Positions 102 to 37,932 are shown, numbered from the stretch's first letter. The stretch is DNA of 39,294 nucleotides from Methanobacteriota archaeon (GCA_002685895.1 NYYK01000002.1:1-39294), one strand, 5' to 3'. Program-made: numbers and translations. The notes: a model not told the origin generated them from the letters alone.

Positions 102-127
102 AGGTGTGATTTTGAGGTGTGATTTTG
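102..127. repeat. perfect tandem duplication of 13-mer AGGTGTGATTTTG
   Basis: AGGTGTGATTTTG occurs at 102-114 and again at 115-127, just downstream of the stop of the minus-strand gene ending at 135. Confidence 0.8.
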
Positions 128-134
128 ACTGGGT

Positions 135-1127
135 TTATTGAATCTTATCTGCAATAACCCCCGCTGCCTTCTCCAGCGACTCCGGATTTGGATGAACAGT
201 ATCCCACGGCAAAGTCGGGACTTTATTTTCAAACGTATCGTACAAATCAATAACCTGGAACTCATAAGCCTCTGCAATCTTCTTGAGTCTTGGTCGCGCA
301 AATTCATGCAATTCCTGATCTGGCCAGATAACAAAGTATTTGCGATCAAGCGGAACCAGTTTGCTGAATTGTTCAAGTTGGATCGAGTACTGCGTCAGTA
401 TGTTTTGCTCAACAGAATCTTGATCAGGATTTTCGATTGAGCTTTTCTGCTCGGCTTTCTTCCTTTTCTTCCCAGCTCTTAGATCATAAGTCTTTTTGAA
501 TGCTTTATAAAATGTGCTATGGTCAGCAAGCCAACATTTGCCCGGCAAGTAATTCATAATTCCTGTTGTAATTGGTCTGCAAGTTTCCTGTGATGGATCC
601 CAACCTTTTGGTCGCAGTATTCCTTTGTCATCCAGGAAGCCCGCAGTTCCGCCAAGGTCATTAAAGTAAAAAACTAGAACAATGATCTCGGGATCAATTG
701 GAACTATCTTTTTTCTGAGTATGCCGGTTTCTTGTTCCAGATTATATCCTGGCACTGCAGTATTAATTAAATTGTAACCGGGTAGGAGATCGGCCATGTA
801 AGCAGTCAAAGTCTGATCATCATTCACTCCATATCCGAATGTTATCGAGTCTCCGAAGACTGCAACTGTCGGAGTGTCTTCAATTAGTTCCGGACTTCTG
901 AACCCCAAACTGTTTGTGGAGATTTTTGCTTTGTAGGCTTTCTCTTTCTTTAGATTGGATTTAAGTTCGTAGCTTATCTCTGGATGCTCGTTGGTTTGGA
1001 AGATCTTTGGGGGATTGGGGGAAGTTCGTTGTAATCCTGTGATTCTTAAGCCCAATTCAGCAATCAGAAAGAAAACGAGGATTGAACCTATCAGGAGCGA
1101 GCCGTTGGATATCCAGGTATTTCTCAT
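135..1127 (-). CDS. membrane-anchored SGNH/GDSL-family hydrolase
   Basis: 330-aa ORF with an N-terminal TM helix (LLIGSILVFFLIAELG). SGNH block I is VAVFGDSITFGYGV. A C-terminal DTVHPN matches the DxxH block V. Confidence 0.75.
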   Translation of the reverse strand: MRNTWISNGSLLIGSILVFFLIAELGLRITGLQRTSPNPPKIFQTNEHPEISYELKSNLKKEKAYKAKISTNSLGFRSPELIEDTPTVAVFGDSITFGYGVNDDQTLTAYMADLLPGYNLINTAVPGYNLEQETGILRKKIVPIDPEIIVLVFYFNDLGGTAGFLDDKGILRPKGWDPSQETCRPITTGIMNYLPGKCWLADHSTFYKAFKKTYDLRAGKKRKKAEQKSSIENPDQDSVEQNILTQYSIQLEQFSKLVPLDRKYFVIWPDQELHEFARPRLKKIAEAYEFQVIDLYDTFENKVPTLPWDTVHPNPESLEKAAGVIADKIQ

Positions 1128-1166
1128 ATGGGCATTAAAGGTAATCGTGGAAAGGATACAACATTA

Positions 1167-1236
1167 GGATATAAAGGATATAAATGATTTAAAGGATTTT
1201 CATCCTTTATATCCTTTAACTCCTTTATATCATTTT
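1167..1236. repeat. intergenic AAGGATAT-word repeat with inverted arm (hairpin)
   Basis: GGATATAAAGGATATAAATGATTTAAAGGAT faces ATCCTTTATATCCTTTAACTCCTTTATATC. It lies between the carbamoyltransferase stop and the SGNH start. The same word family recurs at 3322-3388. Confidence 0.7.
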
Positions 1237-1237
1237 A

Positions 1238-3064: not shown

Positions 3065-3065
3065 A

Positions 3066-3321: not shown

Positions 3322-3388
3322 AAGGATATAAAAGAGATAAAAGATTTAAAGGATTCTCATTTATATCTTTTATATCCTTTATATCTTT
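3322..3388. repeat. intergenic AAGGATAT/AAAGATAT-word repeat with inverted arm
   Basis: AAGGATATAAAAGAGATAAAAGATTTAAAGGAT faces ATATCTTTTATATCCTTTATATCTTT. It lies between the DUF5989-like ORF and the SxtJ-like ORF. Confidence 0.65.
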
Positions 3389-3565: not shown

Positions 3566-3676
3566 AAAGAAACAGAAGAAACAGAAGAAGCAGAAGAATC
3601 AGAAGAATCAGAGGACTTCGTTAAAATAGAATCTGAAGATTTTTCTCTTCTGTTTCTTCTGATTCCTCTGTTTCCT
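3566..3676. repeat. 9-mer (AAACAGAAG)-type tandem repeat plus inverted arm, forming a long hairpin
   Basis: Left arm AAACAGAAGAAACAGAAGAAGCAGAAGAATCAGAAGAATCAGAGGA. Right arm TCTCTTCTGTTTCTTCTGATTCCTCTGTTTCCT. It sits immediately after the stop of the SGNH gene at 3675. It also generates the spurious low-complexity ORFs 3379..3744 and 3554..3790. Confidence 0.8.
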
Positions 3677-4802
3677 AATAAAGGATATTGCACATTTCTT
3701 TGGCAATTAATTCTCCGGCCAGCCTGTTCCCCTCGACATTCCAATGGCCTTCACCCGAATCATCAAAGCCATGTAGATAGGTATTATTAGTCTTAGCGTA
3801 TGTGAGGAACTTAGGTGCCAAAGTAATTACAGGCACATTGATCGATTCGCCGAGTTTCCCAATACGTCTTTCGGGATAATTAAGATCAGCTTTATTTTCA
3901 GGCTTAACCTGAACACCGTTGGTCAAAGTTACAATTACAAACTTCGAATTATGAGATTTAACCTCCTCATTCATCTTTTTAATAATTTCTTCGGTTATTC
4001 TCCATGCTTCTTCCCATTCTGGTGCCGGCGGATCAGAATAAATTTCTGTATCCAAGCCGGGGTCACCTCTCTTTGCATCTTCATCTTCTTTGTTAATGCC
4101 AAGTTCTTTCATTAGTCTCTGGTTGCGCGCGGAAATTTTGATCTTATTTATCATTTGCATCGTCCTAAAGTTATTTACAATCAAGTGTGAGCCTTGATAA
4201 AGAAACTTCTGTGAGCTTTTAAACTCTTTTGTGTCTTTAAAAGATTCATCCAGCTTTAGTTCGCTTCCATCCAAAAAGAAATATGGAATATTGTGAACAT
4301 TATTAAGTGCTTTTGAGTTTTCTCTTACATCGTTTCCGGAAAGGAAAGAAAGCAGAACAATATCAGGCTGATAATCCCAGACTATGTGCTTAAGAAGCAG
4401 GTATTCCTGCGCAGTCGAGAAGCCGGACATTCCGAAGTTCAAAACTTCAATCTCCTTACCAGCACAGGTGTTCAGTTCATTCTCCATTATGGACCAATAT
4501 GCATTCTTAGCATTAACATGACGGGCCTCTGTATATGAATCTCCCAATACAGCGACTCTGATTACTCCGTCAGCTTTTTCTTTTGAATACAATTTGTCTC
4601 TGAAACCATCGTGATTCACCTTGAAGTGCGCCTTTCCTTCGTCTTGCCAATATCCTTCCGCTTCCGGACGGAGAGAAAACCCGGTCACAGGGTCTATTCT
4701 CATATAATAAGGGAAAGAGAACCCCACTAATCTGAGGATGATTTCGAATATTAAAACTGCAATGGTTACAGATATGATGATAAGAAGTAGCTGTTTTCTC
4801 AT
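3675..4802 (-). CDS. membrane-anchored SGNH/GDSL-family hydrolase (paralogous type to 135..1127)
   Basis: ORF 3675..4862. The preferred start is Met21 (MRKQLLLIIISV...) at 4802, which forms an ATGA overlap with the upstream M50 protease stop. It has a TM helix, block I VAVLGDSYTEA, and a C-terminal GEGHWNVEGN. Confidence 0.75.
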   Translation of the reverse strand: MRKQLLLIIISVTIAVLIFEIILRLVGFSFPYYMRIDPVTGFSLRPEAEGYWQDEGKAHFKVNHDGFRDKLYSKEKADGVIRVAVLGDSYTEARHVNAKNAYWSIMENELNTCAGKEIEVLNFGMSGFSTAQEYLLLKHIVWDYQPDIVLLSFLSGNDVRENSKALNNVHNIPYFFLDGSELKLDESFKDTKEFKSSQKFLYQGSHLIVNNFRTMQMINKIKISARNQRLMKELGINKEDEDAKRGDPGLDTEIYSDPPAPEWEEAWRITEEIIKKMNEEVKSHNSKFVIVTLTNGVQVKPENKADLNYPERRIGKLGESINVPVITLAPKFLTYAKTNNTYLHGFDDSGEGHWNVEGNRLAGELIAKEMCNILY

Positions 4803-5476
4803 AAAACTCCGGCAATAATATTCATTATTACAAGGAATGGCGTCATTATCCCAAACACCCATGTGGAAAGAATTGGAATATTAAATACCATCCCTGCGAT
4901 TATCAGTCCCAACAGAATTATCGGACCGCGTGCCATGAATTCAAAATATTCACGTTCATATCTAAGCGGAATGAAAGCGTAAAGAACTTTTGAACCGTCC
5001 AATGGATTAATCGGCAACAGATTGAATGCCATAAGAGCTAGATTTACAAAGATGCAACGGCTTAGAACGCGCTCGAGCATTATCATTACAGTAGAGCCTC
5101 CACCAGAGCCTCCAAGAAGTCCGATTGCAGATGTTGAGTTCCATTCAAAAAGTCCGATCATCAAAAAGAAACAAATAAACGCTGTGATCAGATTAGCCGC
5201 AGGGCCTGCGAGAGCTACAAGTGTAGTATCGCGTTTAACATTCTTAAAATATCGCGGATCAATAGGAACAGGTTTTGCCCAACCGAATCCAATTACAAAA
5301 AACATCAGTGTTCCTATCGGGTCCAGATGCGCGAGGGGATTGAGGCTGACACGATTATCCATCTTTGCTGTTGGATCCCCCAGTTTCAAAGCAATGTATC
5401 CGTGTGCAAACTCATGAACAGAGAGGCCGATTAAAACGGCGATGATGAAAGTAGGGTTTAGGAAAGTCATTGGCAC
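4799..5476 (-). CDS. site-2 protease family (peptidase M50) membrane metalloprotease
   Basis: 225 aa and polytopic. It has HEFAHGYIALKLGDPTAK (HExxH), LNPLAHLDPIGT and NLLPINPLDGSKV, all typical of M50 proteases. Confidence 0.88.
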   Translation of the reverse strand: MPMTFLNPTFIIAVLIGLSVHEFAHGYIALKLGDPTAKMDNRVSLNPLAHLDPIGTLMFFVIGFGWAKPVPIDPRYFKNVKRDTTLVALAGPAANLITAFICFFLMIGLFEWNSTSAIGLLGGSGGGSTVMIMLERVLSRCIFVNLALMAFNLLPINPLDGSKVLYAFIPLRYEREYFEFMARGPIILLGLIIAGMVFNIPILSTWVFGIMTPFLVIMNIIAGVL

Positions 5477-5519
5477 TACTTTAGCGCAGTATCTTACCCT
5501 TAGACAGACTCTCTTTGAT

Positions 5520-5750
5520 TTACTGAATTAAATCGTCATCTGTCTCGATAACCACTTGTCCAGGATAATGTGGTACCAAATCAGCAAGTAGTTTTTCAAC
5601 CTGCGATTTTATTTCTCCGGTATCGACGCCGGGAAGAGTCGTGACTACAAGAATATCGGGTGTAAAAGTAGCGCCTTCTACTCCTTCTATAGCAAGTACT
5701 TGTCCCCCTGCCTTTTCTGCTATACAGTGAGGATCTGGTCCGCGTCTCAT
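5520..5750 (-). CDS. hypothetical protein (76 aa)
   Basis: ORF only, with no recognisable motif. It is co-directional with, and 43 nt upstream of, the M50 protease gene. Confidence 0.4.
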   Translation of the reverse strand: MRRGPDPHCIAEKAGGQVLAIEGVEGATFTPDILVVTTLPGVDTGEIKSQVEKLLADLVPHYPGQVVIETDDDLIQ

Positions 5751-5840
5751 ATAGTTGTATTATAGCAGAATATGAGAAATAATCAAATAGCGTTAAATTT
5801 GTTGACGTATTCAATAACAAACCTTAGGCTTCTTTAGCTC

Positions 5841-6050: not shown

Positions 6051-6085
6051 TTCGGGTTCGGCTATCGGGTTCGGTTTTCGGGTTT
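6051..6085. repeat. TCGGGTT-type heptamer tandem repeat
   Basis: TTCGGGTTCGGCTATCGGGTTCGGTTTTCGGGTTT fills the convergent spacer between rpmB and the GGQ protein gene. Confidence 0.7.
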
Positions 6086-6504: not shown

Positions 6505-6597
6505 CAAGTATTAAGTATTGAGTATTAAGTATCAAGTATGGAATGCCAGTTGTCTGAACCTTGATTTGCTTGATTACAGGATTAACTTGATTACAGA
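6505..6597. repeat. two adjacent word repeats (TAAGTAT x5; CTTGATT(ACAG) x3)
   Basis: CAAGTATTAAGTATTGAGTATTAAGTATCAAGTAT at 6505-6539, then CTTGATTTGCTTGATTACAGGATTAACTTGATTACAGAG at about 6560-6597. Confidence 0.7.
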
Positions 6598-6721
6598 GAA
6601 TTACCTTAAATCCTGTTTATCATGAAAATCATGTTGATCATGGTCTTTTTTGTAAGAATCACAAACCTCACTCGTCTTAAGCACTGTCACAGACACTTTT
6701 ATTCTTTCCCAACCATACTCA

Positions 6722-7197: not shown

Positions 7198-7206
7198 AGT
7201 TGAGAG

Positions 7207-7289
7207 CAATTAGCAGATTAGCAATTAGCAATTGGCTTTTTTTTAATCAAAAAAATAGCCAATCTGCCAATCTGCCAATATGCTAATTG
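7207..7289. repeat. ATTAGCA/ATTGGC heptamer repeat with inverted arm (long hairpin)
   Basis: CAATTAGCAGATTAGCAATTAGCAATTGGCT, then T8AATCAAAAAAA, then TAGCCAATCTGCCAATCTGCCAATATGCTAATTG. It lies directly upstream of the ECF sigma gene. Confidence 0.8.
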
Positions 7290-7328
7290 CCGGTAATTTG
7301 TGTAAGAACATACCTCTTCATTCGTCTT

Positions 7329-8665: not shown

Positions 8666-8693
8666 AACTTAGAACTTAGAACTTAGAGCTTAG
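8666..8693. repeat. AACTTAG heptamer x4
   Basis: AACTTAG AACTTAG AACTTAG AGCTTAG. The same word occurs at 19758-19799. Confidence 0.85.
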
Positions 8694-8810: not shown

Positions 8811-9121
8811 TGCATTACACTAATGGCACCCTAAGAATAGCTTCACTATAGGCAGCAAACTTCGTGCCTTTTACCCTTAAAATCCTATTTAGCTCTTGTT
8901 ATCCTTACAAGGGTACCAATCCTGCTTAGTTAGGTATATAGAACACTAAGGGCACTTTGAAAAGTTTTGTACCTGCTCTCATACGTGAAGATATTCTTAG
9001 GTTGCCAAACATTATCTGTCGAGTTTTCAGATATATATCTGGGGTAAACATTTGTATTTTTTTGCTTTAATTCTTCAAATCTGACTAGATAATGCTAGTT
9101 ATCTGATAAATTTACAAGATA

Positions 9122-12100
9122 TTATTCTTCAGTTTTCTCAATTTTGATTACCTCTTCTGGTGACAATTGAATCGGTAAGAATCCTTGCAAGGCAGATGAT
9201 AATTCTCCAGTTTCTAATGCTTTATGAACAGCAGGCTTTACAGATGTTTCAAAGGCTGCACGAAAGGCTTCGGGCACCTTTGCACTAACCTCATTCATTA
9301 TTGCAGCTTGCATCTTTGGATTCATACCACCAAGCAATGCTGAAACTATAACACGCATTAAATCATCTCGGCCTATAAACTGTGTGTACTCACCATCTGT
9401 TAATAATCCTTTTTGCACTTCTGTTACAAATGGGTCTAACTGTTTACCTTCTGCTTGTAATCTATCTCTCATTAGCCGCTCTTGTTCTACAAGGTCATTG
9501 AAGAATTGCTTTACTGTTTTTTCACCATTTAATGTACTTAGGAGTAATGATGCAAATTGCTGATAACCTTCTTCAGACCACTCATCCATTGCCATAGACT
9601 TAAAATCGAAGTGTCCGCTACATAATGAATCCCTTTTTACCTTAAGATTTCCACCATGACGATCAGAGTCAAATTTTCCTCGTAATTTGTTATTAATTTC
9701 TAAAGTTAGATTGATCATTGCATATTCCCTTTTTTCATCGCTTTCATCCTCTAGCTCAATGAAGTGATCACCTTCCATTTCGGTCATTAAGAAGAAGTTA
9801 TCACCTGCTGCAATTACATCAGGAGCATCAAATGTATACTGCCTTTCATCCATTGTAACAGTAGACTTTCGATAAATATCTGCAGCTGTACCGTATTGTA
9901 ATTTTGCAATACTACAGTCAGTCTCTATATCAAGACGACTACTTGCGTGTTGTACTAGTTCACGAGTGGTTTGCAGGGTAGTTTCACCCATTGCTGTTCC
10001 CAAATTATCAGCCATTCTACTCATAGTATCAAAACCAGCTCTTCCTCTTTCAAGAGAGTTTGGTCTAACAATTGATAGCATGTAGCTACCTCCATTACTA
10101 AGCTGAACTCTCGTAACTACATTAATTGAACCAGACCCAACCACATCGCCAATATGAGTTATAGTAGTTGGTTTACCAAAGTGCTGACTACACTGTCTTT
10201 CTAAATCCTCTTTTATTTCCTCTATCCACTCGGTTACTTCCCATCGTTCTGGTTCATCAGCATTATACTTTAAACGCTTTAGGTCTGTTCTTATGTCTTC
10301 AGGGACAAGTGGGTGACTTTGAGCTGCTTGACCAAATTTAGTTTCGGCAGGACCCATATTTTCAAGGAATAGTGCCAATGATTCGCCAAGTCTCATGGTG
10401 GTAACATCTTTCTTCTCAGAAGCAGACATCATAGCCGCTAAGCATAGATGCTTCTGATAATGAGGCAATGCGTCTACGTATGCTCTTATAAAATATCGTG
10501 ACTCTTGTTCATATAATCCACCGCCTGGGAATAACTTAGATATTGCATAGTCAAAAGTTTCTGCATCTACTGCACCCAATGAATCCTCTGGCGATATGAG
10601 CAATTCTCTTGAAAGAATAGCCCTAATCTCAATAGGTGCTGACCAGAAGTTTTCGTAAAAGTAACGAGTAGATTGCATGGCAAGCTGATACCTAAATGCA
10701 GAAAGTGCAGTATCAACTTGCTGTTCATCGCTTTCCGACTTTAGCGCGAAAGCACCTCTAATAGGATCATTTGGGTCTACAAACTCTAAGGCATCTATAG
10801 TCGAATCAATAAAATGTTTAGCTGAATTTAAAGAATAAGGAGTAGTCAAAAAATCTAAAGTAGATTGTCTATGCTCTGGCGATTTTCTAATGGCATCAAT
10901 ACATCCATCAGTTAAAATTCCATAGTATGCTGGCTTATCTATCATTTCTTTTGTTACTTCATAAACTTTATCCCTCATCACGCTACTCACTCTGTGCTGT
11001 GCTTCTACATCTTTTGCTAATTGACCAAGGATATGTTTCTGATCAACACGGTTAACATTGGCCTGTATTCTTTCTGAGATTGCTACTGCTTCTTGCTCGT
11101 ATTTACTACTGCCATCATCTATGCCATTAGCAGCCAGTACATTAGTAGACCAAAGCTCAATTAGTTCTGTTCTTAGTCCAGGATTTTGCACTCTACGACC
11201 ACCTAAAATTGTCTCACATAAACGTATCTGCTCATCTTGTGGCATACCACCATTACCATTTTTATGCTTAATTCGAGCTAATATTTTAGTTAAGACTTTA
11301 TCAACCATTTCTGGGAATATTAAATCAGCTTCACTCAATAGTTTCCACTGACGAACAGTGCCAGTTAGATTATTGGTACGACTTATGCTTCCAAGAAATG
11401 CGGTAGCAGATTTTGTTAATGCCTCTCGAAGATTTTCTTGGAATACAGAACCAGAAATATAATTTGCACCCATTACTTCTACAAGCTGGGCTGCCTCTTT
11501 CAATGATGGAGTTCTTTCAATCATTAATACAACAGCTTCTGCCATTAATACAGAAGTTCTTAAGCCCACTTCCTCTTCGCTCTCTTTTGATTCTGCTAAA
11601 ATAGACAAATACTTCTTCCAGGTACGTGGCTGCAATTCATAACTTTTATTCACATCGGTGAGAACCGAGTCCAGTTTTTTTATGTAAAGAGCAGCCAGCT
11701 CAGAATCGAATATAGGAAAACGTCCATCAAAATGACTTCTTTCCTCTTGACCCTTTATATATGTAATACTATCACCAGTGAGCAATTCCTCAAACAGCTC
11801 ATATTTTTCTTCTGGGCTAAAAACGCCAGTGTCTTCTTGGAGGATGAAAGTTATATAAGGGTTTCTTGATACTGCGAATTGATCTGTATCCACTGCATCT
11901 TCGTGATAACTTTCTAGCCTTTCTTCTGTCATACTAACAAATGCCATTTCACCAGGCATAGAGTTGGCTATCAGCTTTTTACCCTCCTCAGAATCAAACA
12001 ATTGTCGAACAGTATTCTGATAACGCTCTAAATCTTCATCCTTTAATTTCCTTAACCAATCCATAAAAGTTCGTATCCTTCTTTCCTCTGTAGTTAAAGG

Positions 12101-14464: not shown

Positions 14465-14679
14465 TGTATTTTATCGCATTTATTGGATGATATCTATCCT
14501 TTATATGCAATTCAAGCCACTAAGCAACATAACAAAGTTCCTTTTTCTCTTCCTCAAACTCCAACATCTCCAACCTTCTATTCAATTCCGTCAGCCCAGA
14601 AAGTAGAGTAAGGATGTCTCCGTAGGGTTCCTTTTTCAACTGATAAGCTCCACCTTAATCGAGTTAAAAAGTGCTATTC

Positions 14680-15903
14680 CTACAGCATTATCCGCCCCTC
14701 CTTCAGCAACAACCTCTCCTTAAAATTCCTCAGCACATTGCTTTTCTCTAAACTCGATCCCTCACGAAAAATCCCAATCAAGTATTCTTCAATGCTGATA
14801 GGATCGTTCTCTGGTCGGAAGCGATTAATCTTCGCAAGATCCTCTTTAATTCTGCGGTTTAACCGTAGGTGTTTCTCTTTAATCTTGCCAATAATGGCGG
14901 CTGCCTCTTCAAACAGTGCTTCCTCTCGTATGTACTTACATTTACACACTCTCGTACCACCATACTTATTGCACTTGTAATACACATAGGTTTTACCGTG
15001 CCGATTCGTATGTTCAGTGCCACTAACACCAGACCCACATTCCGCACACTTCAGTACTTGATTGAAGTAAAAATTCTTACGACCCCATTTACCCTTAGCC
15101 GTGCGTTTAAGGCTACCTTGTACCTTGGTGAATAATTCCTTGCTAATAATAGGCTTATGATTCCCTTGGTATCGAATACCTCCGTACACAAATTCTCCGT
15201 AATAAAAGGGCTCTTGAAGTATGTTAAAGATACGGCTAAACCCCACCGTACCACCACTAATATTTCTAAATCCTTCCTGTTGTAGTTTTTCTTTTGCCTC
15301 TCTGCCTGTCATACCTTTCTCGGCTATGTTGGTAAAAAGTTTCTTAATGTACGGTGCTCGTTCTTCATCTACCACTATAGAACTAGGATCACCAAAGCGG
15401 TCGGCTCGCACCAGCTTATAGCCAATAGGAGGTCGACCTGGTCGTACTCCCATCTCACACTTGGTACGCAGGCCACGTTTTACATTCTTACTTCGATTAT
15501 CGTTCTCTAGCTTCGCTTGACTACAAAGAATCATCAGTAAAAACTTTTCGTCTGGGGTGTTGGTAAAGGTTTGTCCGCTCGTTTGAATTTGCACCAGTAC
15601 CTGTTGATCCATTAAGTCGACTAGCTTTCCTAGGTCACCAGCATTTCTACTTAAGCGATCTGGTGCCCACGTTAAGATTGCGTTGAATCTTCGTTCTTGG
15701 AGTCCTATTAGTAGGCTTTGATATCCTTTTCTTCCGCCAGAATCTTTAGCAGATTTACTTTCTTGAATCGTTTCTACAACTTTAAGACCCTGTTTATCTG
15801 CAATCTTCTGCATGGCTGCAATCTGTGAATCAATGGAAAGAGCTTGTCGCTCATCTGATTCAGATGATTTACGAGCGTAGAGGCAGTGGGTAGTCTTTTC
15901 CAT
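14680..15903 (-). CDS. large serine recombinase (resolvase/invertase catalytic domain + recombinase domain + zinc ribbon)
   Basis: ORF 14680..15963. The likely start is Met21 at 15903 (or Met18 at 15912), so that the catalytic LYARKSSESDERQ lies near the N-terminus. Other motifs: DRLSRN, RPPIGYK, and a Cys-rich CAECGSGV...YYKCNKYGGTRVCKCKY. Confidence 0.88.
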   Translation of the reverse strand: MEKTTHCLYARKSSESDERQALSIDSQIAAMQKIADKQGLKVVETIQESKSAKDSGGRKGYQSLLIGLQERRFNAILTWAPDRLSRNAGDLGKLVDLMDQQVLVQIQTSGQTFTNTPDEKFLLMILCSQAKLENDNRSKNVKRGLRTKCEMGVRPGRPPIGYKLVRADRFGDPSSIVVDEERAPYIKKLFTNIAEKGMTGREAKEKLQQEGFRNISGGTVGFSRIFNILQEPFYYGEFVYGGIRYQGNHKPIISKELFTKVQGSLKRTAKGKWGRKNFYFNQVLKCAECGSGVSGTEHTNRHGKTYVYYKCNKYGGTRVCKCKYIREEALFEEAAAIIGKIKEKHLRLNRRIKEDLAKINRFRPENDPISIEEYLIGIFREGSSLEKSNVLRNFKERLLLKEGRIML

Positions 15904-16031
15904 GTACCTCATGGATGACGCAACCGCGTCCCAAAGGCTAGGCGATTTTACGCTTAAATACATCTTCTAAAGAACTAGAATTTGTTATTCTATAAATATG
16001 TCAAGCCCTTGCAAACGGAACAGAATTTCCC

Positions 16032-16097
16032 CCTTTTTATAGGTGTTCCATTTGTTCCATTTCTCCTTTTTTTATAGTGTCTCATTTGTCTCAATTT
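16032..16097. repeat. tandem ~33-bp direct repeat upstream of the recombinase gene
   Basis: Copy A: CCTTTTTATAGGTGTTCCATTTGTTCCATTT (16032-16062). Copy B: CCTTTTTTTATAGTGTCTCATTTGTCTCAATTT (16065-16097). Each copy contains an internal GTYYCATTT doublet. Confidence 0.7.
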
Positions 16098-16403
16098 AAA
16101 GACAAGAATACTATTCAAAGGGTAGGAGACCTGTATGCTCCGCCATGGCCACTCACTTCGTTCGGGTTCATAGCAAGCCACCAGAGCTGATATAGCCTTA
16201 TAAGAGCCCAATTTGCGACTTTCCGCTACCTTGAAAGGAAAGATTTATAGTTCTTGTTGGGCTAGATTGACTAATATAGTTCAACTGGAGATTTTGGCTT
16301 GTATTAGCCAATTCGCGATAGAATATGCAATTTTCCCACATAATGCGCTCGATCTGTCAATTGAAAATTCACTCTAAAACACCCAATTGAATCAAGAATT
16401 TGC

Positions 16404-16433: not shown

Positions 16434-16467
16434 CTCCATGTTCTTTAATTACTTACCCACTACTCCT

Positions 16468-16694: not shown

Positions 16695-16795
16695 GAAATA
16701 CAAAATACGAAACACGAAACAAATTAAAAATCCGAAAAAATAAAGTTTCAGATTTTGTATTTCGGATTTGTTTCAGATTTCGGATTTAGAATTTG
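16695..16795. repeat. GAAATAC/GAAACAC word repeat with inverted arm
   Basis: GAAATACAAAATACGAAACACGAAACAAATTAAAAATCCGAAA faces TTTCAGATTTTGTATTTCGGATTTGTTTCAGATTTCGGATTT. It fills the convergent spacer between the histone gene and prfB. Confidence 0.75.
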
Positions 16796-17937: not shown

Positions 17938-17976
17938 CAGAATTGATAATTCAGAATTGATAATTGAGAATTAAAG
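17938..17976. repeat. AATTGAT/AATTCAG/AATTGAG heptamer repeat
   Basis: CAGAATTGATAATTCAGAATTGATAATTGAGAATTAAAG, in the divergent spacer between prfB and the DUF1653 gene. Confidence 0.75.
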
Positions 17977-18923: not shown

Positions 18924-19799
<876 letters not shown>

Positions 19800-20426: not shown

Positions 20427-20538
20427 GTCAAATTGCTAAATTGTTCGACAGAGCGTTACGCACGCTGGTTTCTGCAATTTATAGTATCTTAAGTTATTTA
20501 TTCACTCTGTGAGCAATTTGGCAATTTAACAATTTAAC
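20427..20538. promoter_or_regulatory. long imperfect hairpin built from AATTG-word repeats in the infC-rpmI spacer
   Basis: Left arm GTCAAATTGCTAAATTGTTCGACAGAG (20427-20453). Right arm CTCTGTGAGCAATTTGGCAATTTAAC (20505-20530). About 22 of 26 positions are complementary, around a loop of about 51 nt. An extra AATTTAAC unit extends to 20538. Confidence 0.55.
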
Positions 20539-20600
20539 TTATTTACCACTTTCTTAAGTTTTTTCTTTTCTTAGACTGAATCTTCAATATAATCTCCCCA

Positions 20601-20795: not shown

Positions 20796-21137
20796 ATGAG
20801 AGTTACACGTGGTTCAGTTCGGCACAATAGACACAAGAAAATCCGCAAACTCGCGAAGGGATATCGCGGTATGCGCAGGACTACATTTAAAAAGGCAAAT
20901 GAGGCTGTGATGAAAGCCGGAGAGCATGCTTACATTGATCGCAAAAAGAAGAAGAGAGTATTCAGACAGCTATGGATTGCCCGCCTAAATGCTGCAGTAA
21001 GAGAACAAGGAGTTTCTTATTCAAGATTTATTAAAGCTCTAAAAGATAAAAAAATTGAATTAAATAGGAAAACATTGTCGGAGCTTGCCATCAATGAACC
21101 TAAGGTATTCGAGAAAGTTGTTGAGGCAACAAAGTGA
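20796..21137 (+). CDS. rplT: 50S ribosomal protein L20
   Basis: MRVTRGSVRHNRHKKIRKLAKGYRGMRRTTFKKANEAVMKAGEHAYIDRKKKKRVFRQLWIARLNAA... Confidence 0.93.
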   Translation: MRVTRGSVRHNRHKKIRKLAKGYRGMRRTTFKKANEAVMKAGEHAYIDRKKKKRVFRQLWIARLNAAVREQGVSYSRFIKALKDKKIELNRKTLSELAINEPKVFEKVVEATK

Positions 21138-21225
21138 ATAGTGAAAAGTGAATAGTGAATAGTGCTTTATAAAATATGATTCTCTTTAGTAACTATTCAC
21201 TTTTAACTATTAACTATTCACTATT
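21133..21225. terminator. AGTGAAT/AGTGAAA heptamer repeat with inverted arm, candidate bidirectional terminator
   Basis: AGTGAATAGTGAAAAGTGAATAGTGAATAGTG faces AACTATTCACTTTTAACTATTAACTATTCACTATT. It lies between convergent rplT and the 134-aa membrane protein gene. Confidence 0.6.
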
Positions 21226-24443: not shown

Positions 24444-24446
24444 ATG

Positions 24447-24543
24447 ATTAGTGGGTAGTTGGTAGGTTGTAGTAGTGTTGGGGGTCGCTTGTCACTAGTC
24501 ACTGGTCAATTGTCAAAAGCGAGCGAAGCGAGCGTGTCAATTG
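24447..24543. repeat. word repeats (TAGTTGG-type; GTCACT/GTCAAT-type; AGCGAGCGA) in the atpA-atpB spacer
   Basis: TAGTGGGTAGTTGGTAGGTTGTAGTAGTGTTGGGG, then GTCACTAGTCACTGGTCAATTGTCAAAAGCGAGCGAAGCGAGCGTGTCAATTG. Confidence 0.7.
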
Positions 24544-26355: not shown

Positions 26356-26361
26356 GATGGG

Positions 26362-26392
26362 AAAGTTAAAAGTTAAAAGTTAATAGTGAAAT
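26362..26392. repeat. AAGTTAA/AGTGAAA heptamer repeat
   Basis: AAAGTTAAAAGTTAAAAGTTAATAGTGAAAT. Confidence 0.75.
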
Positions 26393-26393
26393 G

Positions 26394-26645
26394 TTATGAA
26401 TCAGCCGTTGGAGTTAACGCATCTCGAATTTTAAAACAACTTGGCAAATGATAATCTTGCCGTACAACTGCTGCTGCTGCTTCACCGGTTCTATCGGTTG
26501 AACCAAGAAGTGTTTGAGCAACCAGTGCCTGATCAACTGCTTGCTGTTCGTGGAAATTACGTGGTTCAAATCTTTTTACATTTGTACCGGGTTCTATGGC
26601 TAATTGTTGAGCCCGGATAATGGATCTATCTGTTTCGAATAACAT
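26394..26645 (-). CDS. hypothetical soluble protein (83 aa) between atpF and atpA
   Basis: ORF only. It fills the F-A gap, is bracketed on both sides by heptamer-repeat spacers, and has no recognised motif. Confidence 0.45.
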   Translation of the reverse strand: MLFETDRSIIRAQQLAIEPGTNVKRFEPRNFHEQQAVDQALVAQTLLGSTDRTGEAAAAVVRQDYHLPSCFKIRDALTPTADS

Positions 26646-26674
26646 GGTTAAAGAGTTAAAAATTAAAAAGTTAC
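26646..26674. repeat. AGTTAAA-type heptamer repeat
   Basis: GGTTAAAGAGTTAAAAATTAAAAAGTTAC. Confidence 0.65.
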
Positions 26675-28572: not shown

Positions 28573-28652
28573 GTGTCACAGGTCGCAGGTCACAGGACTG
28601 GTCACAGGTCACAAGTCGCAAGTCTTGTGACTTGTGACTTGTGACATGCGAC
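28573..28652. repeat. GTCACAG/GTCGCAG/GTCACAA heptamer repeat with inverted arm, intra-operon hairpin between atpK and atpE
   Basis: GTGTCACAGGTCGCAGGTCACAGGACTGGTCACAGGTCACAAGTCGCAAGTC faces TTGTGACTTGTGACTTGTGACATGCGAC. Confidence 0.85.
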
Positions 28653-29230
28653 TATCCCAAAATTCCTGCCTTGAAGTTGTTCAACATGAAGAAGGAAATC
28701 AAGAATCCAAGAAGAGCGTATGTCTCGACCAAGGCGGCCATTGTAATAACACGTCCTGTCATCTTGTCATCCTTTGCGAGCATGTGCATACCGGCTGCGC
28801 AGACTTTTGCCTGGTAAGGTCCTGAAGTTACGCATGTGAATGCAACAGGCAAAGCGGCCGCAAGAATTGCAACTCCCTGGCTAACGCTGATTGCAACTTC
28901 GCCCGAGATTACCGGTGCGTAGTTGAAGATAAAGAGAAGAGCGATAACCATTCCGTATAGTCCTTGCGATCCGGGCAGAACCATCAAAGTGATGACTTTA
29001 CCTGCAAGGTCAGGCTTTTCGGTCAAAAGACCTGCACCTGCTTGTCCTGTAACAGAAACTCCGATGATGGAGCCGATACAAGAAACAAAAGTGGCGATTG
29101 CAGCGCCAAAGAAGGCGAATGCAAGGCCCCATTGCACTTCACCGGCGTGGGTTGCAGCTGCCACGGGCTCTTGTGCGAAGACCGCAATAGGAGCTAGTAC
29201 TCCGGCGGCAACGATTAGTGAGCGTTTCAT
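28652..29230 (-). CDS. atpK: V/A-type ATP synthase proteolipid subunit K (4-TM duplicated c subunit) with N-terminal signal-like extension
   Basis: 192 aa. LPGSQGLYGMVIALLFIF, SGPYQAKVCAAGMHMLAK and MAALVETYALLGFLISFF align by eye with my recollection of Enterococcus hirae NtpK. The N-terminus is MKRSLIVAAGVLAPIAVFAQEP. Confidence 0.9.
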   Translation of the reverse strand: MKRSLIVAAGVLAPIAVFAQEPVAAATHAGEVQWGLAFAFFGAAIATFVSCIGSIIGVSVTGQAGAGLLTEKPDLAGKVITLMVLPGSQGLYGMVIALLFIFNYAPVISGEVAISVSQGVAILAAALPVAFTCVTSGPYQAKVCAAGMHMLAKDDKMTGRVITMAALVETYALLGFLISFFMLNNFKAGILG

Positions 29231-29243: not shown

Positions 29244-29278
29244 AAAAGTTAATAGTTAAAAGTTAAGAGTTAAAAATT
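29244..29278. repeat. AGTTAAT/AGTTAAA heptamer repeat
   Basis: AAAAGTTAATAGTTAAAAGTTAAGAGTTAAAAATT. Confidence 0.75.
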
Positions 29279-29279
29279 A

Positions 29280-31418: not shown

Positions 31419-31490
31419 CTAATAGATTTGAAGAGTAAAAGAATACATTATTAAATGAATATTCATTAATTTGATTGGCTTTTCCGTATC

Positions 31491-31555
31491 TCCTCTCCCC
31501 CTCAGAAGGGGGAGAGGATGGGTGAGGGGTGCCTGTGCTGGCAATATCCATCCTC
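31491..31555. repeat. GC-rich palindromic element in the spacer upstream of atpI
   Basis: A perfect 12-bp stem TCCTCTCCCCCT (31491-31502) / AGGGGGAGAGGA (31507-31518) with loop CAGA. A second pair is GAGGATGG (31514-31521) / CCATCCTC (31548-31555). Confidence 0.75.
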
Positions 31556-31559
31556 ATAA

Positions 31560-32014: not shown

Positions 32015-32026
32015 GGCTCTTAGACC

Positions 32027-33004: not shown

Positions 33005-33041
33005 GGTTTAGGCTTATCTAGGCAAGGGAAGAGATATAATT

Positions 33042-33114
33042 AAAAGTGAAGAGTGAAAAGTGAAAAGTGTCACTTAAAAAGAACTTTTAACTATTCACTT
33101 TTAACTTTTAACTT
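33042..33114. repeat. AGTGAAA/AGTGAAG heptamer repeat with inverted AGTTAAA arm in a divergent spacer
   Basis: AAAAGTGAAGAGTGAAAAGTGAAAAGTG faces CACTTAAAAAGAACTTTTAACTATTCACTTTTAACTTTTAACTT. Confidence 0.8.
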
Positions 33115-33128
33115 CTAAGATATTCAAT

Positions 33129-33608: not shown

Positions 33609-35323
33609 GCGCACAAGGCCAAGGAGTTAACTCTGTTGGCGAAATGTGTGCTAAGGGGCTTAAACGTGCAGGATATTGCGTATTCGGAGAGCGGGAGTAT
33701 ATGTCAGTTATAATGAATGGACACTCTTCATATCAGTTGGAGATTAGCAACGAAAAAGTCAGAAGCGCACAGGAAAAGTCAGACGTTTTGGTTACATTCA
33801 ATCATCACGGAATTAAAAATAATCTCAGAGATTTGATAGAAGGAGGGGTGTTGCTTCATCAAACTCCGCAATGGAAGTTCGGTGAAGAGGATCAGAAGTT
33901 TATTGATGCTAATTCAATCAAAGTGATTTATTTGCCGACGGAAGAGATTCTAAAAAAGTTAAATGCAAAACCTGTACTTGGAAATGTGCTCATTACATCA
34001 GTTGTCTGGTCATTGATTGGGCGAAGTTCAGACGAACTTAAGGAAATGGTCAGAGAAAGGTTTGGACACAAGAAGGATTTGTTGGAGTTGAACTTTAAGT
34101 GTATTGATGAGGGAACTCAACTGATTGAAATTGAGAAGCTGGTTTTGCCTGAACCTGACGATTGTTGGAAAAGTCAGTTACTGATAACGGGCAGCCAGGC
34201 AATGGGACTCGGTGCTATACATGCCGGGTGCAGAGCGCTATTCGGATATCCGATGACGCCGGCGTCGCCTCTTCTTACGTTCTTAGCTGATATACAGGGG
34301 GAATCAAAAATGCTTGTAAAACAGGCAGAGGACGAGATTACAGCTGTTCAGATGATGGTTGGAGCGATGCACGCGGGAACGCGTGCGATGACCGCAACGT
34401 CGGGGGGCGGCTATGATTTGATGACGGAAACGATCTCGTTGTGCGGGATCAGTGAGACTCCGGCAGTAATTGTATTAGCTCAACGCCCGGGTCCCGGAAC
34501 GGGACTCCCAACATGGACTGCCCAGGGAGATTTGCTTATGGCAGTTAGTGCCGGACATGGTGAATTCCCTCGCGTAGTTATGAGTGTAAGCGATGCGGAA
34601 GATTCATTTAGCTTAATGATGGATGCGTTTAATTATGCGGAAGAGTTCCAAATTCCGGTGACTGTTCTTACAGAGAAGCAAATAGCGGAGTCATTGTTTA
34701 CGATCGATGCGTTACAGGTGAGAGGTGACAGGTTACAGGTTAGGAGGGGGAGGTTAGTTGATGGTGATGGGCTTAAATTACTTAGAGCTTCTGACCGTTA
34801 TGACCCGGATGCGCCGGATGGCGTGAGCGCGAGATGGCTTCCGGGAAGCGATGCACCGACGTATTGCGCGCAAAGTTATGAACATAATGCGGATGGATCG
34901 TTCGATGAAAGCGGAGAAAATGCGACAGCTCAAATGGAAAAAAGAATGAAGAAGATGAAGGGGCTCAAGAGGGTGTTGCCGGAGCCAGAACTTTGGAAAG
35001 TTAATAGTGAAAAGTTAATAGTGAATAGTGACTTCTCCGGCGAAATAGATGTGTTGGTTGTGAGCTGGGGGAGTAATAAGAACGTCATTCTAGATTCCAT
35101 CAATGATGAGTCAGTTGCATATCTTCACTACACATATCTTTGGCCGCTTAAGACGGAGAAGTTAGTTGAACTTGCGGCAAAGGCGAAAAAGACTGTTCTT
35201 GTTGAAGGCAATGCTCAAGGACAGTTAGGTATGTTAATTAAGCAAGAGTGTGGACTTGAATTTGATGAGAGGGTCCTCAAGTTTGATGGGAGAGTTTCTG
35301 TTCCATTACAGCTAATTTCATGA
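33581..35323 (+). CDS. korA: 2-oxoacid:ferredoxin oxidoreductase, fused gamma-alpha subunit
   Basis: ORF 33548..35323 starts at a GTG; I prefer the ATG at 33581 (MSRISIKIVGAQGQGVNS...). The gamma domain is GAQGQGV. The alpha domain is ITGSQAMGLGAIHAGCRALFGYPMTPASP, EDEITAVQMMVGAMHAGTRAMTATSGGG, QRPGPGTGLPT. Confidence 0.88.
   Translation: MSRISIKIVGAQGQGVNSVGEMCAKGLKRAGYCVFGEREYMSVIMNGHSSYQLEISNEKVRSAQEKSDVLVTFNHHGIKNNLRDLIEGGVLLHQTPQWKFGEEDQKFIDANSIKVIYLPTEEILKKLNAKPVLGNVLITSVVWSLIGRSSDELKEMVRERFGHKKDLLELNFKCIDEGTQLIEIEKLVLPEPDDCWKSQLLITGSQAMGLGAIHAGCRALFGYPMTPASPLLTFLADIQGESKMLVKQAEDEITAVQMMVGAMHAGTRAMTATSGGGYDLMTETISLCGISETPAVIVLAQRPGPGTGLPTWTAQGDLLMAVSAGHGEFPRVVMSVSDAEDSFSLMMDAFNYAEEFQIPVTVLTEKQIAESLFTIDALQVRGDRLQVRRGRLVDGDGLKLLRASDRYDPDAPDGVSARWLPGSDAPTYCAQSYEHNADGSFDESGENATAQMEKRMKKMKGLKRVLPEPELWKVNSEKLIVNSDFSGEIDVLVVSWGSNKNVILDSINDESVAYLHYTYLWPLKTEKLVELAAKAKKTVLVEGNAQGQLGMLIKQECGLEFDERVLKFDGRVSVPLQLIS
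34711..34757. repeat. GTTACAG/GTGACAG heptamer repeat inside the korA coding sequence
   Basis: GTTACAG GTGAGAG GTGACAG GTTACAG GTTAGGA GGGGGAG GTTAG, translated as ALQVRGDRLQVRRGRLV. Confidence 0.75.
34998..35032. repeat. AGTTAAT/AGTGAAA heptamer repeat inside the korA coding sequence
   Basis: AGTTAAT AGTGAAA AGTTAAT AGTGAAT AGTGACT, translated as KVNSEKLIVNSD. These are the same words as the intergenic repeats at 21133, 26362, 29244 and 33042. Confidence 0.8.
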
Positions 35324-36192: not shown

Positions 36193-37081
36193 AAAGCTTG
36201 AGTGCCAATAGTGGATGCTTGAAAGCATGAAAGACCATCCTCAAGATCTGTATAACAAAGGCAAAAATCGCAGTCACTCTGGTCAGGACCGACCCCTTTT
36301 TGATGAATCTGGAAATAATCTCTAACCTATCGAAAATTCCTCTTCCATCTACTCTGTTTTGAGCAGTTGCCGCGCCGCCGTGCACACGAAATTGGCCTAA
36401 GTTTTTGGTCTCGTTATAAAGGTCAGTAATCTCCAGCATCCTGACCCAATACTCAGTGTCCAGTAACTGCTTCATCGTGGGGTGGAAAGGTCCCGCCTGC
36501 GCACTTCGTGCTTCGGCGGGCAGGCCTGCAAGTTCCATCTCGCCTCTGCTCATAACAACAAAGTCCGGTTCTCCGACTAGGTTTGGCCAGAAACTTCGGC
36601 GCAACCATTTCTTAAGGAACTTATCTCCGTCAATTATGCCTGACGGAAATCTTTTTTTCTTTATCCTCAATAATCTTTTAAAACATCTCTTCGATCCGCT
36701 CGTATCTTCAAACTTGTATTCATGCCCCATCGCAACAAGTCCAACGCCGGTATTATCATTCATAATATTCACAGCAGTTTCCAGATAATCGGGAGTCCAT
36801 AGATCATCCTGAAAAAGATATGCAATAATTGGAGCTGAAGTCGCATTAAAACATGCGTTCCAGTTGCCTCCTATACCTAATCTCTCAGGCGATTTTTTGA
36901 AAGTGATTCGTTCATCAGACAAAAAAGGTTTAACAATCGACGCCGTATCTCCATCAGACGGATCCTCATGAATAAATGCTTTCCAGTTCGTAAAAGTTTG
37001 GGCCTGGAGGGACTCCAAAGCCTCCTTAAGAAACCTTGGGTCGGGATTGTACGTTGGAATCAGAACGTCGACTGAGGACAT
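36164..37081 (-). CDS. family 2 glycosyltransferase
   Basis: VDVLIPTYNPDPRFLKEALESLQAQTFTNWKAFIHEDPSDGDT and YLFQDDLW (the DxD region). Confidence 0.8.
   Translation of the reverse strand: MSSVDVLIPTYNPDPRFLKEALESLQAQTFTNWKAFIHEDPSDGDTASIVKPFLSDERITFKKSPERLGIGGNWNACFNATSAPIIAYLFQDDLWTPDYLETAVNIMNDNTGVGLVAMGHEYKFEDTSGSKRCFKRLLRIKKKRFPSGIIDGDKFLKKWLRRSFWPNLVGEPDFVVMSRGEMELAGLPAEARSAQAGPFHPTMKQLLDTEYWVRMLEITDLYNETKNLGQFRVHGGAATAQNRVDGRGIFDRLEIISRFIKKGSVLTRVTAIFAFVIQILRMVFHAFKHPLLALKLFKKILPIKH
36492..36528. repeat. GC-rich palindromic mini-element inside the GT2 coding sequence
   Basis: CCCGCC (36492-36497) / GGCGGG (36515-36520) around the loop TGCGCACTTCGTGCTTC, then the palindrome CAGGCCTG (36521-36528). 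The loop matches that of the element at 30-61 at about 15 of 18 positions. It is translated as LPAEARSAQAG. Confidence 0.6.
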
Positions 37082-37095
37082 GAATTAATTGTATA

Positions 37096-37123
37096 CGTTA
37101 ATTCGTTAATTCGTTAATTCGTT
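37096..37123. repeat. TCGTTAAT octamer tandem repeat
   Basis: CGTTAATTCGTTAATTCGTTAATTCGTT, in the divergent spacer between GT2 and trmD. Confidence 0.8.
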
Positions 37124-37247
37124 TATCTAATTATTAGTTCAAGTTATATCTATAAGGAACCTTTCGCGCGAATGGTAGACTAATGACTATCGGAAATATA
37201 TTGCATAAACACGTGCTGAAGCTAAAAATTTATATATAATCACCGGG

Positions 37248-37898
37248 ATGAGAATCGACGTAATCACACTTTTTCCGGATATGTTTAAGGGGCCTCTTAC
37301 AGAGAGCATCCTCGACAGAGCTCAAAAAATGGAGCTATTGGAGCTTGAATTTAATGATCTGAGGGAATTTGGGACAGGGAATTATAAGCAGGTTGATGAT
37401 AGCCCGTATGGCGGTGGAGCGGGGATGGTGATGACTGCGCCGGTCCTTGTGGATGCGATAGAGAAGGTCAAAGGTGAGGGGGATCCATATGTAATATATC
37501 TGTCTCCGCGTGGTGAAAGGCTCACTCAAGAGAAAGTTGAAGGGTTAGCTAAGAATCATGAATGGTTAATCTTAGTCTGTGGTAGATATGAGGGAATAGA
37601 TCAGCGTGTAATTGATGGTGGATGGATTGATGAGGAGATTTCAATCGGAGATTATGTGCTTACGGGCGGGGAATTGCCTGCTGCGGTTTTGATTGATGCG
37701 GTTGCGAGGCAGATTCCCGGAGTTCTTGGTAAAGACGAGTCAGCTGAGGAGGAAAGTTTTTCGGAAAGCTTAGATAGAAAAAGGGAGTACCCGCATTACA
37801 CCAGACCGGAGGAGTTTAAGGGACTTAAAGTTCCTGATGTTTTGCTTGGGGGGAATCACGGGGAGATTGATAAGTGGAGAAAAGAAAACTGTAAGTAA
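37248..37898 (+). CDS. trmD: tRNA (guanine37-N1)-methyltransferase
   Basis: MRIDVITLFPDMFKGPLTESILDRAQ..., VDDSPYGGGAGMVM, LVCGRYEGIDQRV, SIGDYVLTGGELPA. Confidence 0.94.
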   Translation: MRIDVITLFPDMFKGPLTESILDRAQKMELLELEFNDLREFGTGNYKQVDDSPYGGGAGMVMTAPVLVDAIEKVKGEGDPYVIYLSPRGERLTQEKVEGLAKNHEWLILVCGRYEGIDQRVIDGGWIDEEISIGDYVLTGGELPAAVLIDAVARQIPGVLGKDESAEEESFSESLDRKREYPHYTRPEEFKGLKVPDVLLGGNHGEIDKWRKENCK

Positions 37899-37932
37899 AT
37901 TGACAATTTACAATTGACAGTTGACAATTCGC
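37898..37932. repeat. AATTGAC heptamer repeat
   Basis: AAATTGACAATTTACAATTGACAGTTGACAATTCGC. Confidence 0.8.

Follow-up and report, generated by a model that had tools for sequence, protein, structure and literature searches.

Tandem short-word arrays in the intergenic spacers of a Candidatus Peribacteraceae subclade

We analysed a 39,294-nt stretch of DNA (GCA_002685895.1, NYYK01000002.1:1-39294, deposited as a Methanobacteriota archaeon and hereafter called the window) in which most intergenic spacers contain degenerate tandem arrays of short words, mainly heptamers, that are often arranged as the inverted arms of hairpins. The interpretation that we favour, and to which we give an even chance of being correct, is that the arrays originate in slippage, reach new sites by copying and persist under selection for a cis-acting role in the mRNA; the functional part is what we infer from their placement and conservation.

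Host and array census

The name under which the window was deposited does not fit its gene content. Bacterial L28, L35, L20, IF3 and RF2 are encoded next to a V/A-type ATPase operon, and the closest named relatives are Candidatus Peribacterales/Peribacteraceae of the candidate phyla radiation (CPR). The host is therefore a bacterium and not an archaeon, namely a marine Candidatus Peribacteraceae (CPR/Patescibacteria). DNA of the window was recovered at 99.8-100% identity from independent TARA, ENA, JGI and NCBI assemblies of marine samples, and the arrays are unchanged across these assemblies, which excludes an assembly artefact.

Arrays were defined from Tandem Repeats Finder (TRF) output as merged calls with a period of 6-16 and at least 2.8 copies. 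In the window, approximately 45 short-period rows merged into 31 arrays, compared with 0.40 +/- 0.63 (maximum 3) in 200 dinucleotide-preserving shuffles, so that composition does not account for them. The window has 0.79 arrays per kb; the comparison loci, mostly unrelated V-ATPase loci, have a median of 0.064 per kb. They are concentrated outside genes, with 7.4 arrays per kb of intergenic DNA and 0.085 per kb of coding DNA in the window, and 5-7.4 and 0.09-0.40 per kb, respectively, across four species. The 94 arrays of these four species have mainly a period of 7 (56 arrays), followed by periods of 9 (13), 8 (12) and 6 (8).

A first-pass annotation of the window had listed short-word repeats, many of them forming hairpins, and had placed them in nearly every host spacer. 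When TRF was combined with a reading of all spacers, every listed repeat was recovered: AACTTAG at 8666 and 19757, the AGTGAAA family at 21133, 26362, 26646, 29244 and 33042, GTCACAG types at 24491 and 28575, AATTGAC types at 17938, 20427 and 37898, AGGATATAA at 1166 and 3322, and AAGAAACAG at 3567. Hairpin folding is supported by z-scores of -4 to -10 at 26 loci, the V-ATPase operon spacers included. Arrays are present in most host spacers of at least 25 nt (18/27 by TRF, 20/27 by eye) and cover 35% of host spacer bases, so that 'nearly every' was somewhat overstated. The annotation was right that the island described below lacks them (0/3 island spacers, 1030 nt). Nor are they confined to the window, since same-species DNA beyond it (L090) has like arrays in which words are reused, including AGGATATAA, TAATTCGT and AAAGTTA.

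The syntenic V-ATPase region was compared across relatives. At 100% AtpA identity to the window, the region has 0.81 arrays per kb, and the densities in order of decreasing identity are 0.69 (96%), 1.30 (87%), 0.58 (82%), 1.10 (81%), 0.46 (80%), 0.05 (78%), 0 (76%), 0.16 (74%) and 0.06 (66%). Array richness is thus a trait of one Peribacteraceae subclade with a sharp boundary, and sister Peribacteria (AtpA identity of 78% or less) are without it. The array-rich genomes, six sampled lineages with AtpA at least 80% identical to that of the window, have 42-45% GC and come from marine and other samples, groundwater among them; the array-rich MAGs are GCA_030760135.1, GCA_002434705.1, GCA_030750465.1, GCA_018818235.1, GCA_018814875.1 and GCA_021734665.1. 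The trait, ascribed in the first-pass annotation to a possible genome-specific process, is accordingly common to at least six lineages.

Turnover, constraint and copying of the arrays

Among strains that are ~99.5-100% identical, we observed only two true indels. One is an AACTTAG unit of the array at 19757-19799, which is lost in L001, and the other is a 23-bp unit, TAAATATTATACCTTATTTTGCC, which forms a perfect tandem duplication in L094 (3467-3512) and is single copy in L097. In addition, the heptamer arrays inside the PFOR and AtpB genes are in-frame and lie at sites where orthologues differ by indels. Both observations are as slippage predicts, and arrays are evidently made and resized by whole units, as replication slippage would do. 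A generative process had been suggested at the outset, and these indels support it.

Slippage might also be the whole explanation. The arrays would then be neutral mutational debris from a clade-specific peculiarity of replication or repair, with frequent 6-9-nt slippage and fold-back copying, left without function wherever they are tolerated, namely in protein loops and in the spacer DNA that extends outward from stop codons. The whole-unit polymorphisms among strains and the arrays within coding loops (PFOR, AtpB) are what this account predicts, and it would also explain the quick gain and loss of arrays between close species, the array-free foreign island and the tendency of arrays to start on the stop codon, a place where duplication does no harm. 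Polymerase slippage has moreover been proposed for the heptamer excess in other genomes (Mrazek et al., 2007, as summarised in PMC4679880). We nevertheless consider it unlikely that the arrays are debris, given how little the retained ones have changed.

Fourfold-degenerate sites have diverged by 25% between the window species (L002) and its sister species L099, yet in the 83-nt hairpin spacer that separates the 134-aa gene from L20 only 2/83 positions have changed, both of them outside the TRF-defined arms; a 27-nt spacer without words has 12 differences between the same species. In a second pair, L101 and L105, fourfold divergence is 38%, yet the atpI>atpK leader is identical at 44/44 positions. 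Such low divergence in comparison with fourfold sites implies that cassettes are either constrained or replaced whole. The retained cassettes are evidently under strong purifying selection, and others have evidently been swapped whole for cassettes from a clade-wide vocabulary. Neutral debris is also difficult to reconcile with the biased orientation of arrays relative to transcription, with the return of hairpins at particular gene junctions, in as many as six species, and with the vocabulary common to several species. Since six related lineages show perfectly conserved, cassette-swapped and absent elements together, comparative tests of function versus mutation are feasible.

Orthologous spacers of different species contain hairpins of unrelated words (K>E, NIF3>, convergent 134aa/L20 and IF3<282aa). 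The spacer after atpK has GTCACAA, AATATTCG, GTTATTTC or CGTTACG words, with none in one species and a single arm in another; L099 lacks the window's hairpin at the atpK stop codon (28575), and in L100, L101 and L105 hairpins with other words stand in its place. The convergent 134-aa/L20 spacer has TGAATAG (two species), GGTCACT or GTCGAAAG, and the spacer between infC and the 282-aa gene has AACTTAG (single arm), AGCTTAT, TTGGCAA, TAGCTTCAT or AAGTTCC. The words are not, however, freely variable. Exact cross-species matches of canonical heptamers number 29, compared with 2.5-4 expected (maximum 10), and cassettes recur at different sites.

Several cases illustrate this recurrence. The three AGGATATAA hairpins (at 1166, at 3322 and at 17609 of L090) are paralogous copies with variant words in identical order. 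The atpA>atpB spacer of the window is homologous over its full length to the DUF7847>atpD spacer of L100, and two of its arrays, with their order kept, correspond to a 14-residue in-frame insert in the AtpB of L100. The 8-mer GCAAGCGA occurs 10 times in 157 kb, and 5/10 copies lie exactly at the arm/loop junction of hairpins built from ATTGTYC/ATGGTTC words, in four species and mostly at non-orthologous spacers. Finally, the leader cassettes before atpA and atpB are of swapped types in L101 and L105. Array cassettes, hairpin and leader included, must therefore have been copied between spacers and occasionally into genes.

Such copying could be the work of miniature mobile elements, similar to REP/REPIN elements or to MITEs, that are moved by a dedicated transposase encoded elsewhere, with the tandem-word texture being secondary. 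The same cassettes at non-orthologous spacers and in-frame in atpB, the core GCAAGCGA, conserved in four species where arm meets loop in one hairpin family, the clean presence or absence between sister species and the exchange of cassette types between neighbouring cistrons would all fit a mobile element. We regard this origin as very unlikely. The word families are many and unrelated and have no common ends, and stop and start codons serve as anchors for the single-arm arrays. Inspection by eye, without a formal test, of the boundaries where an element is present in one of L002 and L099 and absent from the other showed neither terminal inverted repeats nor target-site duplications, and the sole recombinase in the clade DNA that was fetched is the island's serine recombinase.

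Two further observations were made on the L002/L099 pair. Nucleotide identity between the two is a mosaic of blocks at 83-97%, for example 94% over 4335-5821 and 97% over infC, which suggests recombination between the two sister species. The 141-nt spacer upstream of atpI (31419-31559) has no words and contains a GC-rich hairpin (CCTCTCCCCCTTCTGAGGGGGAGAGG); it is identical in L099 at 141/141 positions despite the 25% fourfold divergence, and may be a conserved leader, a small RNA or part of a recombination tract.

Placement at genes and candidate functions

As first described, arrays lie after convergent genes, within the V-ATPase operon and in divergent regions. Their placement relative to genes is strand-specific. 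Nineteen hairpins lie between co-directional genes. In 16 of them, the first base of the 5' arm falls between -16 and +12 nt relative to the upstream stop codon; the 3' arm stops 17-117 nt short of the next start codon in 17/19 and reaches it in the other two. The G-poorer arm is the 3' arm in 15 of these hairpins, versus 4. Overall, 38 intergenic arrays overlap a stop codon or start at most 12 nt from one. The words contain stop codons in modest excess (66% vs 50%, P about 0.005), which we attribute to the growth of arrays from stop codons rather than to function.

Thirteen arrays lie at most 12 nt from a start codon, and the G-poorer strand is the sense strand in 10 of them, versus 1, with 2 ties. 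In the divergent spacer at 33005-33128, each hairpin arm is an ACTTTTN leader, in sense orientation, for its own gene. Leaders contain 8.9% G, and Shine-Dalgarno (SD)-like 4-mers precede only 4/118 genes. A separate observation concerns prfB, encoding RF2, which carries on the minus strand (17813-17882) a classical programmed +1 frameshift, CTT TGA, after the SD-like GGGGAAGGA. With the frames joined, RF2 is 358 aa long and has its start at 17882, and the same frameshift site is found in L100. The anti-SD interaction therefore appears to be kept, though 114/118 genes have no SD-like leader.

We propose the following model for arrays as cis-acting mRNA elements. Arrays grow and shrink in whole units, as by slippage, and cassettes spread by copying between spacers and now and then into genes. 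Inverted array pairs would form imperfect 25-50-bp stem-loops that begin at, or a few bases from, the upstream stop codon, and such stop-anchored stem-loops could act at the 3' end or between cistrons, by stabilising transcripts, by marking processing sites, as attenuators that need no U-tract or as switches of translational coupling. Sense-oriented G-free arrays (type A[A/C]T[T/A][T/A]T[C/A]) would provide unstructured leaders before starts that lack an SD sequence, perhaps coated by an RNA-binding protein with a footprint of ~7 nt, for example a cold-shock domain protein or S1. The arrays also offer a pointer to how SD-poor bacteria might organise translation and operon stoichiometry.

The suggestion in the first-pass annotation that the hairpins are not simply terminators was borne out. 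Sites with a GC-rich stem and a T-run are no commoner than in shuffles (16 vs 15.6 and 11 vs 17.3), and none of the listed sites falls on a word hairpin. Neither canonical terminators nor sigma-70 promoters, both of which we had considered, were enriched, and the only Rfam match in the window at the gathering threshold is tRNA-Ser. In practice, gene callers and terminator predictors will misread such genomes.

A number of points weigh against the proposed role in mRNA. Word hairpins are without U-tracts, so that any terminator role would have to be non-canonical. Arm complementarity in 24 hairpins was 456, compared with 454.5 +/- 7.6 for block-permuted arms; the exact pairing register is therefore not under selection, and the co-variation of words between arms that had been envisaged is no better than in permuted arms. 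On the same figures, recent inverted duplication was rejected as well. G-U wobbles showed no asymmetry toward the sense RNA, the sense strand being stabler in 10 hairpins and the antisense strand in 9, which leaves RNA-level structure indistinguishable from DNA-level structure. (A preference for antisense-strand stability, apparent over whole spacers, was gone when the comparison was limited to hairpins.) The lack of position-specific arm compensation and of a sense-strand wobble bias is likewise what neutral debris would give. Furthermore, the hairpins of spacers a, b and f occur in one but not the other of two species with 96% AtpA identity, and individual elements are therefore dispensable; we would also argue that the island genes are expressed without any arrays. 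The footprint of ~7 nt is taken from the binding sites of cold-shock domains, and all functional steps of the model are read from sequence.

A stronger form of the model would have heptamer-word cassettes as a lineage-specific post-transcriptional syntax that replaces SD sites and canonical terminators. A protein with a heptad footprint would start translation on the G-free arrays, stop-anchored hairpins would set the stoichiometry of cistrons, and a still undescribed mechanism would actively copy cassettes between genes. We regard this version as distinctly improbable.

The absence of register-specific complementarity between arms could also mean that the words matter more than the helix. They might be sites for one or more clade-specific DNA- or RNA-binding proteins that bind periodically, such as nucleoid proteins, regulators or ring-shaped RNA binders, with the arrays acting as operators and not as structural RNA. 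Retained arrays are indeed conserved in sequence beyond what pairing demands, the vocabulary is limited and common across species, and a binding partner has been speculated on, not shown, for both Nostoc heptamers (bioRxiv 10.1101/2022.06.06.494920) and TAACTGA repeats (PMC4679880). However, dozens of unrelated words with periods of 6, 7, 8, 9 and 13 would need many factors, and orthologous sites carry different words, which makes a recognition code of this kind quite doubtful in our judgement. The 56-aa histone-fold-like protein encoded at 16468-16638 was considered as a reader of the words and rejected: its match to PF00808 is weak (E 0.0095) and misses the Pfam cut-off. Clade-wide, identity of the protein ranges over 82-100%, the array-poor relative L104 having 82%, and the protein hence does not track the trait.

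Known repeat systems and other features of the window

The first-pass annotation recognised no described repeat family. This holds for the Peribacteria phylum, for which we found no earlier description of such arrays in the literature (the Ca. Peribacter riflensis genome paper describes none; PMC4736985), but the phenomenon as such matches heptamer long simple-sequence repeats, hairpins of the short tandemly repeated repetitive sequences (STRR) and TAACTGA repeats (PMC2670836, PMC4679880). The present case shares features of all three and differs from them in word identity and host. What it adds is higher density, many word families, stop-codon anchoring and the exchange of cassettes.

In cyanobacteria, STRR have been on record since around 1990, but neither their function nor their origin has found general agreement. 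Jackman and Mulligan (1995) are said to have described close Anabaena strains with 'highly variable but structured' nif intergenic regions, and in 1997 Vioque reportedly found STRRs inside the RNase P RNA gene. The STRR1-3 words are CCCCAGT, TTGGTCA and CAACAGT; none of them is in the clade word list, and our host is not a filamentous cyanobacterium. In filamentous cyanobacteria, STRR form 7-bp repeat hairpins between operon genes such as hupS-hupL; their function is unknown, and effects on transcript stability or translational coupling have been suggested (PMC2670836). Heptamer repeats of Nostoc affect recF/recO reporters (bioRxiv 10.1101/2022.06.06.494920). The Peribacteraceae arrays resemble STRR in their tandem 7-bp units in non-coding DNA, in the inverted arrays that form hairpins between operon genes and in the arrays near start codons. 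They differ in belonging to small genomes of the CPR phylum, in their words, in the common periods of 8 and 9 and in the stop-codon anchoring of hairpins. Their density of 0.5-1.3 per kb compares with 0.12 per kb in the Nostoc plasmid pCC7120alpha (6 arrays in the 50 kb scanned), a figure for scale only since this is not the chromosome. They constitute a second, independent and much denser case of heptamer repeats beside the cyanobacterial STRR.

Heptamers were the commonest long simple-sequence repeat in most genomes surveyed, and slippage was proposed as their origin (Mrazek 2007, via PMC4679880). As that summary describes them, such repeats have 5-11-nt units, are longer than composition predicts, are mostly kept out of genes when the unit is not a multiple of three, and have a sporadic phylogeny. 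The arrays agree with this description in their excess over shuffles, in the dominance of period 7 and in their depletion from coding DNA. The survey predates CPR genomes and, as summarised in PMC4679880, leaves inverted-arm hairpins, cassette copying and a cross-species vocabulary unmentioned.

The TAACTGA repeats of marine Beggiatoaceae and of some Cyanobacteria and Bacteroidetes lie just upstream of start codons that have no ribosome-binding site, and S1, Csp and CsrA were proposed as binders (PMC4679880). They consist of 2-6 tandem heptamers in forward orientation, a few bases upstream of start codons, with occasional copies in ORFs. The single-arm ACTTTTN, AATTATC and CTTAATT leaders correspond to them in lacking a canonical ribosome-binding site, and the arrays close to start codons correspond in placement. 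The exact Beggiatoaceae word TAACTGA was not found in tandem (no TAACTGATAACTGA in the 105 loci scanned). BOGUAY has a single dominant word, with related heptamers being rare, against dozens of words in the present clade. Only one indirect repeat is on record for the TAACTGA case, in contrast to the common inverted pairs of our arrays.

The REP, BIME and REPIN elements of proteobacteria are dispersed extragenic hairpins at gene 3' ends or within operons and are credited with mRNA stabilisation (PMC3116915). The arrays are similarly short, dispersed, extragenic and hairpin-forming, at gene 3' ends and in operon interiors, and some families are dispersed with a conserved core (AGGATATAA, GCAAGCGA). 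A REP family, in contrast, has a single conserved sequence in each genome and is linked to a RAYT transposase, and here those families stand alongside dozens of unrelated, degenerate tandem-word families. No RAYT (IS200/IS605-like) transposase is encoded in the ~140 kb of clade DNA that was read.

Table. Word arrays and hairpins of the window, in order of position
Element	Position	Strand	Location and remarks
(GGTGTGATTTTGA)x3, 13-mer array	91..128	.	convergent spacer after GDSL-like gene; TRF; also L090 11000-11037
two-arm hairpin, 9-mer AGGATATAA and complement	1166..1235	-	starts 2 nt past carbamoyltransferase stop; 3' arm G-free
two-arm hairpin, AGGATATAA / AAGATATAA family	3322..3388	-	overlaps DUF5989 stop codon
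two-arm hairpin, (AAGAAACAG)5 + (CTGTTTCTT)3	3567..3674	-	begins at stop of 375-aa GDSL-like gene
TTCGGGT / TCGGGTTCGGCTA array	6051..6085	.	36-nt convergent spacer, L28/RF-1-domain gene, 97% covered
three arrays: AAGTATT x4.9, CTTGATTAA x3.9, AATCATGTT x3.8	6506..6642	.	divergent spacer
two-arm hairpin, AGCAATT / GCCAATCT words	7205..7291	+	upstream of ECF sigma factor gene
single-arm (AACTTAG)x4	8666..8693	+	between DUF5667 stop codon and tRNA-Ser
two-arm word hairpin, GAAACAC / TTTCGGA	16695..16795	.	convergent spacer; separate canonical terminator at 16665-16680 adjoins
(CAGAATTGATAATT)x2.5	17938..17972	+	5 nt upstream of DUF1653 start codon
(AACTTAG)x6	19757..19799	+	includes stop codon of 282-aa gene; strain L001 one unit short
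long-range hairpin, AAATTGC-type words (20427-20446) with (CAATTTAA)x3 (20514-20538)	20427..20540	+	infC/rpmI spacer
two-arm hairpin, AGTGAAT x4.6 / TAACTAT x5.1	21133..21225	.	convergent L20/134-aa gene; arms overlap both stop codons
spacer cassette: CAATTGAC hairpin, AAGCGAGCG loop, GACCAGT words, ACTAC-word leader	24444..24543	-	atpA>atpB spacer
single-arm G-free leader, sense CACTATT AACTTTT AACTTTT AACTTTC	26356..26396	-	83-aa gene stop to 6 nt before atpA start
degenerate AACTCTT / AATTTTT words	26646..26670	-	25-nt spacer; under TRF threshold
two-arm hairpin, GTCACAG / CTTGTGA	28575..28653	-	starts at atpK stop codon
single-arm G-free leader, sense AACTCTT AACTTTT AACTATT AACTTTT	29244..29279	-	upstream of atpK
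inverted arrays, AAAAGTG x4 / AACTTTT x5.3	33042..33118	.	divergent spacer (33005-33128)
heptamer array GTTACAG x4.6	34711..34742	+	within PFOR coding sequence, variable region
heptamer array AAAGTTAATAGTGA x2.4	34997..35031	+	within PFOR coding sequence; matching residues absent from L099 orthologue
(CGTTAATT)x3.5	37096..37123	-	14 nt upstream of GT2 start codon; same-word hairpin at L090 16524-16575
(AATTGAC)x4.6	37898..37929	+	fills trmD>yraN-like spacer, stop codon to start codon
hexamer (ACCCTA)x4.5	38862..38888	-	inside 5' end of DsbA-like gene; word recurs in window species and L099

The island (8811-16467) adjoins tRNA-Ser(CGA), and its products include a serine recombinase (14680-15963) as well as a 1780-aa protein (9122-14464). 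The sister species L099 lacks the island and has tRNA-Ser with DUF5667 and the 56-aa gene as immediate neighbours; in strain L093 the content of the locus differs. A 34-nt direct repeat close to the island's right end (16024-16097; 2.1 copies, 78% matches), unlike the word arrays, may be related to an attachment site. At the left end of the window, positions 1-90 (L090 11038-11280) belong to a GC-rich non-coding stretch with apparent structure, located in a convergent spacer of 287 nt; an E-value search of the GC-rich region L090 10900-11400 against Rfam, up to E 0.1, gave no match.

Five related IMG/VR contigs of 7-11 kb (L126, L157, L160, L182 and L200), classed as 'viral' and with ~44-47% GC, contain heptamer arrays of up to 27 copies (AGTGAAA/AGTGAAC, GAATAAT, ATTGAAC, TCACTCT) at 1.6-2.4 per kb. 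Six ORFs of L160 gave one CarboxypepD_reg domain and otherwise no match in Pfam. A scan of viral contigs with the leader-word pattern returned many matches, none assigned to a host, and is uninformative for the question of the arrays.

In L099 (8871-9338; also in L098), a 23S_rRNA_IVP gene, encoding a four-helix-bundle, Avd-like protein, is inserted between atpC and atpF. The ends of the L099 gene are inverted word arrays, of the TGGGACCAGGGAAT type at 8906-8937 and of the CCCCAATCCCCATT type at 9299-9331. In the Nostoc plasmid (L102 3776-4185), a four-helix-bundle gene is likewise followed by an STRR.

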